Virus record (IMG/VR): IMGVR_UViG_2693429733_000016
DNA from: a virus
Taxonomy: Duplodnaviria > Heunggongvirae > Uroviricota > Caudoviricetes
Length of the DNA stretch: 4,626 nt
Reading direction: 5' to 3' (one strand)
Shown here: positions 1 to 4,626 of the stretch, one piece after another
Position numbering within the stretch: the first letter of the stretch is position 1
Layout of the letters: each line of letters begins with the position of its first letter
Made by a program: the position numbers and the translations under genes
The notes under the pieces: generated by a model
The model's input: only the letters and a program-made list of their open reading frames with translations
What the model was told of the DNA's origin: nothing
Databases searched by the model: none

Positions 1-2
1 TG

Positions 3-197
3 CTGGCCAACACCTGCACCTGGACCTATCGCGGTGATGAGTGCGGTTATCACGGTCCGGCAGTCGCGGATGAATATGACCAGCCGACGTCCGATATCAC
101 GAAGGATAAGTGCAGCAAATGCCTGAGTGGTTGCAAGTTCCGCAATAACGTCGGCAATTTTGGCGGCTACCTTTCCATTAACAAACTTTCGCAGTAA
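3..197 (+). CDS. L: Tail tip protein L, C-terminal 64 codons (5' end lies upstream of the window)
   Basis: Open frame from window start to TAA at 195-197, translating to LANTCTWTYRGDECGYHGPAVADEYDQPTSDITKDKCSKCLSGCKFRNNVGNFGGYLSINKLSQ*. From memory this matches the C-terminus of lambda gpL, including the cysteine-rich tail. It lies immediately upstream of K, as in lambda. Not reported by the ORF track because the start is outside the window. Confidence 0.8.
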   Translation: MANTCTWTYRGDECGYHGPAVADEYDQPTSDITKDKCSKCLSGCKFRNNVGNFGGYLSINKLSQ

Positions 198-202
198 ATC
201 CC

Positions 203-946
203 ATGACAGAGACAGAATCAGCGATTCTGGCGCACGCCCGGCGATGTGCGCCAGCGGAGTCGTGCGGCTTCGTGGTGAGAACGCCGGAAGGGGAAAGATA
301 TTTTCCCTGCGTGAATATCTCCGGTGAGCCGGAGGCGTATTTCCGGATGTCGCCGGAGGACTGGCTGCGGGCAGAGATGCAGGGTGAGATTGTGGCGCTG
401 GTCCACAGCCACCCCGGTGGTCTGCCCTGGCTGAGTGAGGCCGACCGGCGGCTGCAGGTGCAGAGTGATTTGCCGTGGTGGCTGGTCTGCCGGGGGGCGA
501 TTCACAAGTTCCGCTGTGTGCCACATCTTACCGGGCGGCGCTTTGAGCACGGGGTGACGGACTGTTACACGCTGTTCCGGGATGCTTATCATCTGGCGGG
601 GATTGAGATGCCGGATTTTCATCGCGGGGATGACTGGTGGCGTCACGGTCAGAATCTCTATCTGGATAATCTGGAGGCCACAGGGCTGTATCAGGTGCCG
701 TTGTCAGCGGCGCAGCCGGGCGATGTGCTGCTGTGCTGTTTTGGTTCATCGGTGCCGAATCATGCCGCCATTTACTGTGGTGACGGTGAGCTGCTGCACC
801 ATATTCCTGAACAACTGAGCAAACGAGAGAGGTATACCGACAAATGGCAGCGACGCACACACTCCCTCTGGCGTCACCGGGCATGGCACGCATCTGCCTT
901 TACGGGGATTTGCAACGATTTGGCCGCCGCATCGACCTTCGTGTGA
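203..946 (+). CDS. K: Tail tip assembly protein K with two peptidase-like domains (N-terminal JAMM/MPN, C-terminal NlpC/P60); classical 199-aa form would start at the internal ATG 347
   Basis: 247-codon ORF starting 5 nt after the L stop. It contains a complete JAMM motif H68-x-H70-x7-S78-x2-D81 (HSHPGGLPWLSEAD) with an upstream E-x-C-G element (AESCGFVV) typical of prokaryotic JAB/MPN domains, followed by an NlpC/P60-like Cys (TDCY, codon 121, nt 563-565) and downstream His residues (NHAAIY, LLHH). Near-identical to lambda gpK as I recall it. The internal ATG at 347-349 is preceded by GGAGG (333-337) and gives exactly 199 codons. Confidence 0.85.
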   Translation: MTETESAILAHARRCAPAESCGFVVRTPEGERYFPCVNISGEPEAYFRMSPEDWLRAEMQGEIVALVHSHPGGLPWLSEADRRLQVQSDLPWWLVCRGAIHKFRCVPHLTGRRFEHGVTDCYTLFRDAYHLAGIEMPDFHRGDDWWRHGQNLYLDNLEATGLYQVPLSAAQPGDVLLCCFGSSVPNHAAIYCGDGELLHHIPEQLSKRERYTDKWQRRTHSLWRHRAWHASAFTGICNDLAAASTFV

Positions 947-1515
947 AAACGGGTGCCGAAGCCATCCGGGCGATGGCCACACAGCTCCCTGCGTTTCGTC
1001 AGAAGCTGAGCGACGGCTGGTATCAGGTGCGTATTGCCGGGCAGGATGTTAGCACGTCCGGATTAACGGCGCAGTTACATGAGGCTCTGCCTGACGGCGC
1101 TGTGATTCATATTGTTCCCAGAGTCGCCGGGGCCAAGTCAGGTGGTGTATTCCAGATTGTCCTGGGAGCAGCCGCCATTGCCGGATCATTCTTTACCGCC
1201 GGAGCCACCCTTGCAGCATGGGGGGCTGCCATTGGTGCCGGTGGTATGACCGGCATTCTGTTTTCTCTCGGTGCCAGTATGGTGCTCGGCGGTGTGGCTC
1301 AGATGCTGGCACCGAAAGCCAGAACTCCCCGCACACAGACAACGGATAACGGTAAGCAGAACACCTATTTCTCCTCACTGGATAACATGGTTGCCCAGGG
1401 CAATGTTCTGCCCGTTCTGTACGGTGAAATGCGCGTGGGGTCGCGGGTGGTCTCTCAGGAGATCAGCACGGCAGACGAAGGGGATGGTGGTCAGGTTGTG
1501 GTGATTGGTCGCTGA
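844..1515 (+). CDS. I: Tail tip assembly protein I (N-terminal ubiquitin-like region plus Gly/Ala-rich hydrophobic segment)
   Basis: 223-codon ORF MAATHTLPLASPGMARICLYGDLQRFGRRIDLRVKTGAEAIRAMATQLPAFRQKLSDGWYQVRIAG...GGQVVVIGR*, essentially the lambda gpI sequence as I recall it. Start overlaps the end of K by 103 nt in another frame. Purine-rich GAGAGAGG at 825-832 lies upstream of the ATG. Confidence 0.9.
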   Translation: MAATHTLPLASPGMARICLYGDLQRFGRRIDLRVKTGAEAIRAMATQLPAFRQKLSDGWYQVRIAGQDVSTSGLTAQLHEALPDGAVIHIVPRVAGAKSGGVFQIVLGAAAIAGSFFTAGATLAAWGAAIGAGGMTGILFSLGASMVLGGVAQMLAPKARTPRTQTTDNGKQNTYFSSLDNMVAQGNVLPVLYGEMRVGSRVVSQEISTADEGDGGQVVVIGR

Positions 1516-1532
1516 TGAAAAACGTTTATGTG

Positions 1533-1552
1533 AAACCGCCTCCGGGCGGTTT
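1533..1552 (+). promoter_or_regulatory. Perfect 8-bp stem / 4-nt loop hairpin (AAACCGCC-TCCG-GGCGGTTT) followed by a T-rich tract, in the I-J spacer; a possible RNA structure or weak intrinsic-terminator-like element
   Basis: Inverted repeat read directly. The second copy at 2405-2424 (AAATCGCC-TCCG-GGCGGTTT) keeps the pairing through a G-U wobble. The function is an inference. Confidence 0.4.
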
Positions 1553-1574
1553 TGTCGTTTATGGAGCGTGAGGA

Positions 1575-1861
1575 ATGGGTAAAGGCAGCAGTAAGGGGCA
1601 TACTCCGCGCGAAGCGAAGGACAACCTGAAGTCCACGCAGTTGCTGAGTGTGATCGATGCCATCAGCGAAGGGCCGATTGAAGGTCCGGTGGATGGATTA
1701 AAAAGCGTGCTGCTGAACAGTACGCCAGTGCTGGACAGTGAGGGGAATACCAACATCTCCGGCGTCACGGTGGTGTTCCGGGCCGGTGAGCAGGAGCAGA
1801 CACCGCCGGAGGGATTTGAATCCTCCGGCTCCGAGACGGTGCTGGGTACGGAAGTGAAATA
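1575..1861 (+). CDS. J: Host specificity protein J / central tail fibre, 5' fragment (codons 1-~95), cut off at the N-containing junction at 1862
   Basis: ATG at 1575 preceded by GGAG (1563-1566). Translation MGKGSSKGHTPREAKDNLKSTQLLSVIDAISEGPIEGPVDGLKSVLLNSTPVLDSEGNTNISGVTVVFRAGEQEQTPPEGFESSGSETVLGTEVK matches the lambda gpJ N-terminus. After nt 1861 the sequence switches to internal I sequence, so the track ORF 1575-1880 ends in out-of-frame junk. Confidence 0.85.
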
Positions 1862-1862
1862 N

Positions 1863-2386
1863 CGTTTCGTCAGAAGCTGAGCGACGGCTGGTATCAGGTG
1901 CGTATTGCCGGGCAGGATGTTAGCACGTCCGGATTAACGGCGCAGTTACATGAGGCTCTGCCTGACGGCGCTGTGATTCATATTGTTCCCAGAGTCGCCG
2001 GGGCCAAGTCAGGTGGTGTATTCCAGATTGTCCTGGGAGCAGCCGCCATTGCCGGATCATTCTTTACCGCCGGAGCCACCCTTGCAGCATGGGGGGCTGC
2101 CATTGGTGCCGGTGGTATGACCGGCATTCTGTTTTCTCTCGGTGCCAGTATGGTGCTCGGCGGTGTGGCTCAGATGCTGGCACCGAAAGCCAGAACTCCC
2201 CGCACACAGACAACGGATAACGGTAAGCAGAACACCTATTTCTCCTCACTGGATAACATGGTTGCCCAGGGCAATGTTATGCCTGTTCTGTATGGTGAAA
2301 TGCGCGTGGGGTCACGTGTGGTATCTCAGGAGATCAGCACGGCAGACGAAGGGGACGGTGGTCAGGTTGTGGTGATTGGTCGCTGA
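1863..2386 (+). CDS. I: Tail tip assembly protein I, 3' fragment of a second allele (5' 148 nt missing at the junction); corresponds to gpI codons ~50-223
   Basis: In-frame translation ...RQKLSDGWYQVRIAGQDVSTSGLTAQLHEALPDGAVIHIVPRVAGAKSGG...NVMPVLYGEMRVGSRVVSQEISTADEGDGGQVVVIGR* ending at TGA 2384-2386. It differs from copy 1 by one conservative change (L to M) and about six synonymous substitutions. The track ORF 1898-2386 is just the first internal Met of this fragment. Confidence 0.8.
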
Positions 2387-2446
2387 TGCAAAATGTTTTA
2401 TGTGAAATCGCCTCCGGGCGGTTTTATCGTTTATGGAGCATGACGA

Positions 2447-2836
2447 ATGGGTAAAGGCAGCAGTAAGGGGCATACCCCGCGCGAAGCGAAGGACAACCTG
2501 AAGTCCACGCAGTTGCTGAGTGTGATCGATGCCATCAGCGAAGGGCCGGTTGAAGGTCCGGTGGATGGATTAAAAAGCGTGCTGCTGAACAGTACGCCGG
2601 TGCTGGACAGTGAGGGGAATACCAACATCTCCGGCGTCACGGTGGTGTTCCGGGCAGGTGAGCAGGAGCAGTCACCGCCGGAGGGATTTGAATCCTCCGG
2701 CTCCGAGACGGTGCTGGGTACGGAAGTGAAATACGACACGCCGATCACCCGCGCCATCACGTCGGCAAACATCGACCGACTGCGCTTTACCTTCGGTGTG
2801 CAGGCACTGGTGGAAACCACCTCAAAGGGGGACCGG
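2447..2836 (+). CDS. J: Host specificity protein J, 5' fragment of the second allele (codons 1-130), running into the N gap
   Basis: ATG 2447 with GGAG upstream. Translation MGKGSSKGHTPREAKDNLKSTQLLSVIDAISEGPVEGPVDGLKSVLLNSTPVLDSEGNTNISGVTVVFRAGEQEQSPPEGFESSGSETVLGTEVKYDTPITRAITSANIDRLRFTFGVQALVETTSKGDR. Differs from copy 1 at I34V and T76S plus synonymous sites. Not in the ORF track because it ends in Ns. Confidence 0.85.
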
Positions 2837-2857
2837 NNNNNNNNNNNNNNNNNNNNN
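2837..2857. other. Run of 21 N: assembly or scaffold gap
   Basis: Literal n characters in the sequence. A single n also occurs at 1862. Confidence 0.99.
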
Positions 2858-2872
2858 TGGTCTGTGGTGCTG

Positions 2873-4626
2873 TCCGGCGTCACGGTGGTGTTCCGGGCCG
2901 GTGAGCAGGAGCAGACACCGCCGGAGGGATTTGAATCCTCCGGCTCCGAGACGGTGCTGGGTACGGAAGTGAAATATGACACGCCGATCACCCGGACCAT
3001 CACGTCGGCAAACATTGACCGACTGCGTTTTACCTTCGGTGTACAGGCACTGGTGGAAACCACCTCAAAGGGAGACAGGAATCCGTCTGAAGTTCGCCTG
3101 CTGGTTCAGATACAGCGTAACGGTGGCTGGGTGACGGAAAAAGACATCACCATTAAGGGCAAAACCACCTCGCAGTATCTGGCCTCGGTGGTGGTGGATA
3201 ACCTGCCGCCGCGCCCGTTTAATATCCGGATGCGCAGAATGACGCCGGACAGCACCACAGACCAGCTGCAGAACAAAACGCTCTGGTCGTCATACACCGA
3301 AATCATCGATGTGAAACAGTGCTACCCGAACACGGCACTGGTCGGCGTACAGGTGGATTCGGAGCAGTTCGGCAGCCAGCAGGTGAGCCGTAATTATCAT
3401 CTTCGCGGGCGCATTCTGCAGGTGCCGTCGAACTATAATCCGCAGACGCGGCAATACAGCGGTATCTGGGACGGAACGTTAAAACCGGCATACAGCAACA
3501 ACATGGCCTGGTGTCTGTGGGATATGCTGACCCATCCGCGCTATGGCATGGGGAAACGTCTTGGTGCGGCAGATGTGGATAAATGGGCGCTGTATGTCAT
3601 CGGCCAGTACTGCGACCAGTCGGTGCCGGATGGCTTTGGCGGCACGGAGCCGCGCATCATCTGTAACGCTTACCTGACCACACAGCGCAAGGCGTGGGAT
3701 GTGCTCAGTGATTTCTGCTCGGCGATGCGCTGTATGCCGGTATGGAACGGGCAGACGCTGACGTTCGTGCAGGACCGGCCATCAGATAAGGTGTGGACCT
3801 ATAACCGCAGTAATGTGGTGATGCCGGATGATGGCGCGCCGTTCCGCTACAGTTTCAGCGCCCTGAAAGACCGCCATAATGCCGTTGAGGTGAACTGGAT
3901 TGACCCGGATAACGGCTGGGAGACGGCGACAGAGCTTGTGGAGGATACGCAGGCCATTGCCCGTTACGGTCGTAACGTCACGAAAATGGATGCCTTTGGC
4001 TGTACCAGCCGGGGGCAGGCACATCGCGCCGGGCTGTGGCTGATTAAAACAGAACTGCTGGAAACGCAGACCGTGGACTTCAGCGTGGGCGCAGAAGGGC
4101 TTCGCCATGTGCCGGGCGATGTCATTGAAATCTGTGATGATGACTATGCCGGTATCAGCATCGGCGGGCGCGTGCTGGCGGTAAACAGCCAGACCCGGAC
4201 GCTGACGCTCGACCGTGAAATCACGCTGCCATCCTCCGGTACCACGCTGATAAGCCTGGTTGACGGAAGTGGCAATCCGATCAGCGTGGAGGTTCAGTCC
4301 GTCACCGACGGCGTGAAGGTGAAAGTGAGCCGTGTTCCTGACGGTGTTGCTGAATACAGCGTGTGGGGGCTGAAGCTGCCGACGCTGCGCCAGCGCCTGT
4401 TCCGCTGCGTGAGTATCCGTGAGAACGACGACGGCACGTATGCCATCACCGCCGTGCAGCATGTGCCGGAAAAAGAAGCCATCGTGGATAACGGGGCGCA
4501 CTTTGACGGCGACCAGAGCGGCACGGTGAATGGTGTCACGCCGCCAGCGGTGCAGCACCTGACTGCCGAAGTCACCGCAGACAGCGGGGAATATCAGGTG
4601 CTGGCGCGCTGGGACACGCCGAAGGT
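2873..4626 (+). CDS. J: Host specificity protein J / central tail fibre, main body (about codons 62-645), continuing past the window end; same allele as the 1575-1861 fragment
   Basis: Continuous open frame (codon phase 2873, 2876, ...) to the window edge. Translation SGVTVVFRAGEQEQTPPEGFESSGSETVLGTEVKYDTPITRTITSANIDRLRFTFGVQALVETTSKGDRNPSEVRLLVQIQRNGGWVTEKDITIKGKTTSQYLASVVVDNLPPRPFNIRMRRMTPDSTTDQLQNKTLWSSYTEIIDVKQCYPNTALVGVQVDSEQFGSQQVSRNYHLRGRILQVPSNYNPQTRQYSGIWDGTLKPAYSNNMAWCLWDMLTHPRYGMGKRLGAADVDKWALYVIGQYCDQSVPDGFGGTEPR... matches lambda gpJ. Nt 2873-2976 are identical to 1758-1861. Missed by the ORF track because there is no in-window start or stop. Confidence 0.9.

Follow-up and report, generated by a model that had tools for sequence, protein, structure and literature searches.

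An apparent tandem duplication at the I-J junction of a lambdoid tail-tip scaffold, read as a probable assembly artefact

The tandem duplication that seems to interrupt the tail-tip genes of this scaffold is very probably an assembly artefact, in which a contig carrying a second allele of the I-J junction (piece B) was inserted between two overlapping contigs (pieces A and C). The window, by which we mean the whole stretch of 4,626 bp that was analysed, is the complete draft scaffold CXDM01000241.1 (GCA_001253895.1), one small scaffold within a fragmented short-read draft assembly. The initial annotation, made from the letters of the sequence, had already favoured a draft misjoin between near-identical or paralogous lambdoid prophages. 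This reading is supported by the Ns found at the joints, the overlap of A and C, the allelic nature of B, the absence of the novel junction elsewhere and similar defects in two other scaffolds (L015 and L016). It needs refining in one respect: the artefact stands, but it is not a simple two-copy duplication, since the pieces follow one another as A-B-C with an alternative allele placed in series.

Scaffold layout and the tail-tip module

The window contains a single N at 1862 and a run of 21 Ns at 2837-2857, which split it into three pieces:

1-1861, piece A, 1,861 nt
1863-2836, piece B, 974 nt
2858-4626, piece C, 1,769 nt

These pieces carry an ordinary lambda-type tail-tip module, whose plus strand holds the end of L, then K, I, a 59-nt spacer and J. 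The module layout is recognisable from the order L-K-I-J on one strand, the overlap of I with the end of K and the short I-J spacer. The Pfam matches of L, K, I and J all exceed their gathering scores (L, 90.1 bits vs 25; I, 95.1 vs 23.8; J Phage-tail_3, 147.4 vs 23). The features are given below, with one joint also placed on the reference locus L001, a prophage of E. coli Z1323HEC0475.

1..197, plus strand: 3' end of L, contig A; 64 codons and a stop at 195-197; PF05100 Phage_tail_L, E=1.5e-25, profile positions 141-206 of 206
203..946, plus strand: K, intact, 247 aa, contig A; Prok-JAB, E=4.8e-14, and NLPC_P60, E=1.7e-12
844..1515, plus strand: I allele 1, intact, contig A; PF06805 Lambda_tail_I, E=3.5e-27
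1516..1574, plus strand: I-J spacer of allele 1; GC-rich hairpin followed by a T-run at about 1522-1569, -20.8 kcal/mol, z=-2.8
1575..1861, plus strand: 5' part of J allele 1, codons 1-95 and two bases of codon 96; 3' end of contig A
1862: lone N, A/B joint; third base of J codon 96, which is C in allele B (2734) and T in piece C (2977)
1863..2386, plus strand: 3' 524 nt of I allele 2, start of contig B; Lambda_tail_I profile positions 40-83 only
2387..2446, plus strand: I-J spacer of allele 2; 6 substitutions and the extra base 2396 relative to allele 1; hairpin kept, -20.6 kcal/mol, z=-2.97
2447..2836, plus strand: J allele 2, codons 1-130, end of contig B; FNIII-A_GpJ from residue 86
2837-2857: 21-N gap, B/C joint; on L001, B ends at 7965 and C starts at 7760
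2858..2872: fold-back of 15 nt with which C begins; reverse complement of 3250-3264, with the shared 10-nt word TCCGGCGTCA at the join
2873..4626, plus strand: contig C, J allele 1 from codon 62 to the scaffold end, where the gene is cut off; FNIII-A_GpJ, Phage-tail_3 and Ig_J

Complete-genome matches to the L region carry the annotation 'phage minor tail protein L', and a protein identical to K is present on eight independent contigs, with the order L-K-I-J in every case. The length of I depends on the start that is chosen. The GTG at 943, the start called in the record, gives 190 aa, and the ATG at 844 gives 223 aa and makes I overlap the end of K, as it does in phage 434 and lambda. The second I is truncated, as follows from the restricted stretch of the Lambda_tail_I profile that it matches.

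Both spacers hold a hairpin followed by a T-run (1522-1569 in allele 1, 2393-2441 in allele 2), and the homologous site is annotated 'terminator' in the phage 434 record OL657226.1. Two allele differences within the hairpin preserve predicted pairs, namely C/T at 1536 (C-G to U-G) and G/A at 1554 (U-G to U-A). A terminator between the co-expressed late genes I and J is mildly curious, though annotated already. Scanning the window for terminators and promoters gave counts no higher than those of shuffled sequence. Both copies of I also have a terminator-like hairpin in their glycine-rich part (1234-1257 and 2105-2128), which is probably meaningless; 3 such sites were found vs 3.5 by chance.

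Copies, alleles and the merged locus

Past the N the sequence returns to the equivalent of position 992 in I and continues to 2836, passing the stop of I (2384-2386), the spacer and another start of J (2447), just as the initial annotation had described. In a gapped alignment, A 992-1861 and B 1863-2733 are identical at 852/870 positions (97.9%), with one 1-nt indel (the extra base 2396). Their first 416 nt agree exactly (992-1407 and 1863-2278), and all 18 substitutions fall after 1408. A repeat of 870 nt at 97.9% identity cannot have originated by chance. The single N had been placed after about codon 95 of J, and this position holds: J starts at 1575, and bases 1860-1861 are the first two of codon 96 (TA, then N). 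As deposited, the first J ORF ends at 1880 with the residues EVKXRFVRS and a stop.

The repeat on which the tandem duplication was proposed is therefore present where it was said to be, but a two-copy layout is an incomplete description, as the copies are not identical and the J 5' region occurs three times. The third copy is piece C, which restarts past the 21-N run. B stops at J codon 130 and C resumes at codon 62, a further restart after the last copy that a genuine duplication would not be expected to show. Over C 2873-3079 and B 2630-2836 the identity is 95.2%; C 2873-2976, by comparison with A 1758-1861, is identical at 104/104 positions. This identity, which can be read directly from the scaffold, indicates that A and C are the same allele and overlap, and that B is a different allele.

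Twenty-six sites separate B from A and C, and at 24/26 of them the base of B is shared with at least one of six independent loci. The coding differences are largely synonymous (16/20 overall; 6/7 in I and 10/13 in J), and the non-synonymous I difference between the alleles is L189M. On these comparisons B is no copy of its neighbours but a natural allele of its own, as expected of an artefact. The pattern argues that B is a genuine second allele, a second functional homolog and not a noisy copy.

Homologous blocks occupy several places in complete E. coli genomes (median 3, maximum 15), so that two copies per genome are to be expected by default, and both copies here would be prophages of one genome. 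The alternative that B comes from a second strain in the sample, through mixed culture or cross-contamination, would leave the arrangement an artefact and place the two alleles in different cells. We consider this unlikely. Sequence alone cannot separate paralogs in one genome from homologs in two, and B is 99.0-99.3% identical to contigs of similarly numbered assemblies (L016-L019), as cross-sample carry-over might yield. However, 99% falls short of identity, and polylysogeny suffices and is the norm at the copy numbers just given. The similarly numbered assemblies also show two alleles of the block (L016), which suits a shared multi-prophage lineage.

The pieces map to L001 as follows:

A: 6001-7862
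B: 6992-7965
C (from base 17): 7760-9512

The stretch of L001 that A and C cover between them thus takes in the whole of B. Without positions 1862-2976 the window comes to 3,511 nt and gives one collinear match to L001, with J open for 645 codons, and the merged A and C likewise align unbroken and collinear to L004, L010 and L014. The contigs flanking B overlap, and their merger directly restores a collinear locus with an open J, as expected of an artefact. At 100% identity the merged A and C were found in no independent assembly compared, the best match being 98.4% for A (L014), so their continuity rests on the internal 104-nt overlap and on collinearity with relatives at 96-98%. On this evidence the true locus would be the window minus 1862-2976, an intact and ordinary L-K-I-J. 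The 21-N run would be a placeholder, with B and C truly overlapping and no sequence missing. The PCR product sizes that had been suggested for telling the arrangements apart are about right; computed for primers at 700 and 3300, they are 1,486 bp for the single arrangement vs 2,601 bp as deposited.

Two of the loci compared show features of their own. In L010 (JBIGOX010000001.1, 10550-14244), which lies in a 5.09-Mb contig, J is called as two ORFs of 328 and 894 aa; this split may be due to a sequencing error or to a frameshift or stop within J. In L002 (NWAJ01000026.1, 8306-10744) K is preceded, at a distance of about 300 nt, by a terminase large-subunit gene shortened to 462 aa; all that is left of L between the two is its last ~200 nt, and the locus appears to be a prophage remnant that has lost its head genes and most tail genes.

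Joints, contig edges and the scaffolding step

Both rearrangement joints coincide with scaffold Ns (1862 and 2837-2857), which bears out the suggestion in the initial annotation that the N at the joint and the N-run favour an artefact. A genuine tandem duplication is expected to have a continuous joint made of called bases; here the sole candidate joint is the N at 1862, and the second joint lies inside the 21-N run.

The contig edges carry further marks. Among six independent loci the site equivalent to 1862 varies between C and T, and A ends exactly one base before this allele-discriminating site (T vs C). The start of B (992) is 2 nt from the variable site 990, the end of B has no adjacent variable site, and the first collinear base of C is variable among the references, not between the two alleles here. 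The proposal that all four contig ends adjoin allele-variable sites was rejected, as the relation is exact for the end of A only, and the argument that extension stalled at a SNP is confined to that end and to the joint of L016 described below. At the edge of C, a perfect 25-nt inverted repeat links 2858-2882 with 3240-3264, in J about 380 nt downstream. The 15-nt fold-back is absent from the reference loci compared, which align only from base 16-18 of C. In the matches listed, which are the best of those to 4,244 E. coli records, the alignment begins at base 16 of the query throughout, with a coverage of at most 85%. The collections genome_contigs and metagenome_contigs gave no exact match to the chimeric start of C and so do not include the source scaffold, which was identified through an exact match of its truncated I product. 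The fold-back looks like a chimeric contig end. The stop of A before the discriminating site and the fold-back of C are contig-edge marks and not biology.

A scaffolding artefact of this kind could have arisen as follows. The sample would have held at least two slightly different copies of L-K-I-J, one of which gave A and C, overlapping by 104 nt, and the other of which gave B (974 nt) from its I-J junction. Because the copies are identical across hundreds of bases (992-1407), read pairs would link all three contigs, and a greedy scaffolder may have strung A, B and C serially, missing that B is an alternative to the overlap of A and C. The extension of A would have halted one base before the T/C site, where no majority base was available, and left the lone N; presumably no molecules span 1862.

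SSPACE puts a single n between contigs that are expected to overlap but cannot be merged. False gaps of the SSPACE/GapFiller type are like those of the window in their N-marked joints, their overlapping gap flanks, a divergent repeat copy in series, a halt at an allelic difference and a multi-copy prophage block. GapFiller extends contig edges base by base and needs a majority of 0.7 at 'allelic differences', and the gaps that it leaves unfilled are mainly in repeated areas (PMC3446322). The pipeline of Velvet, SSPACE and GapFiller is widely used, and its authors call the tools greedy and capable of false joins (PMC5320598). The lone N at the discriminating site and the false gaps would fit the behaviour of GapFiller and SSPACE; the published GapFiller rule, by which a 29-nt overlap is needed, does not account for the 15-nt fold-back at the start of C. 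The accession of the scaffold was not found in the supplement text of PMC5320598 or in the papers searched, so the assembly software is one that we infer.

The contigs could also have been ordered by a reference genome and not by read pairs, with contigs of the same interval concatenated through N separators, although we regard this as very improbable. The pieces do map to overlapping intervals of one locus, and their start order A, B, C is what sorting would give. The usual product of such ordering, however, is a chromosome-scale pseudomolecule and not a free-standing 4.6-kb record numbered 241, and the separators are unequal (1 vs 21 N), resembling estimated or partly filled gaps.

Serial joining by a scaffolder, which we prefer, can be compared with what is seen in other short scaffolds that share the allele-1 I protein and are similarly numbered; judging from their accessions only, these would be sister assemblies. 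CXFS01000279.1 (L016, 1-3299) has a lone N at 895, directly after a first piece whose last base corresponds to window position 989, one base before a site (990) that varies T/G among alleles. Past this N a 95.3%-identical paralogous piece restarts upstream in L, giving the order K'-N-L-K-I-J', in which the first piece is a K'-I' fragment. The lone N of L016 is a false join of the same kind in the same prophage block. In CWVL01000184.1 (L015) the flanks of a 375-N gap (3975-4349) overlap by 19 nt inside the I-J hairpin, and the gap joins an allele-2-like left flank to an allele-1-like right flank; the gap is false and the scaffold probably chimeric. L017 and L018 have the normal arrangement, uninterrupted through the position equivalent to 1862. 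Between the similarly numbered scaffolds, the assemblies of this one gene block contradict each other.

The J-to-I junction was sought directly with a 161-nt probe (1782-1942), presence being set at 80% coverage. It was found in 0/4,280 probe-matching complete E. coli genomes at a coverage of at least 80%; at any one place these genomes matched the J half or the I half of the probe alone. Matching phage records likewise gave half-probe matches, with the junction in 0/102. A genuine duplication should leave a junction that can be recovered in independent genomes, and neither the E. coli genomes nor the phage records contained one.

It is accordingly extremely unlikely that the arrangement is real, that is, that a defective prophage underwent a tandem partial duplication (with triplication of the J 5' region), that J is broken after codon 95 and that the Ns are ambiguous calls. 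The lone N could be an ambiguous base in continuous sequence, and rearranged prophage remnants exist, as with the terminase gene near K in L002 and the split J of L010. But one duplication makes one novel joint, and two are needed here, both of them on Ns. A and C agree at 104/104 positions, yet the middle copy is 2-5% diverged, mostly at synonymous positions and with naturally shared variants, which is the reverse of a recent duplication. The absence of the junction from the 4,280 complete E. coli genomes and 102 phage records, the chimeric fold-back with which C opens and the joints of the same kind at other places in similarly numbered scaffolds also speak against it. A version in which the deposited order is real and represents a degenerate prophage with a diverged I'-J' cassette in J, formed for example by illegitimate or homeologous recombination between resident lambdoid prophages and with the Ns as uncalled bases, is just as hard to credit.

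Annotation of the record and relation to known phages

With the arrangement read as a scaffolding artefact, the repeat holds no new biology, and its value is as a caution. The genes of the record include a 101-aa J fragment with an X (1575-1880, plus strand) and a 162-aa truncated I (1898-2386, plus strand). There are also two antisense ORFs on the minus strand, one of 194 aa that spans the N-run (2431-3015) and one of 258 aa inside J (3782-4558), and the long J reading frame of piece C is left uncalled. These four genes are artefactual, comprising a false J pseudogene, a false truncated I and the two antisense ORFs. False products of this sort enter protein databases, where they can cause duplications, pseudogenes and 'defective prophages' to be overcounted. 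Since the same type of defect occurs in other similarly numbered scaffolds, lone Ns and short N-runs in multi-copy prophage genes should be regarded as possible false joins.

Lambdoid phages, among them 434 and a Lambda_ev record, match the DNA of piece A at 96.2-97.0% identity, and prophages of complete E. coli genomes reach 97.4%. The annotation of the prophage L001 shows an L-K-I-J layout matching that of the window. The tail-tip module of phages lambda and 434 is like the window both in gene order and in its Pfam families (Phage_tail_L, Prok-JAB with NLPC_P60, Lambda_tail_I, and FNIII-A_GpJ, Phage-tail_3 and Ig_J). As in the window, I of phage 434 begins within the end of K, and the spacer of roughly 60 nt between I and J holds a hairpin, which in 434 is annotated as a terminator. 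Once 1862-2976 is removed, the window is without biological difference from lambda and 434 and represents another mosaic allele of their module, at best 97-98% identical to the records examined.
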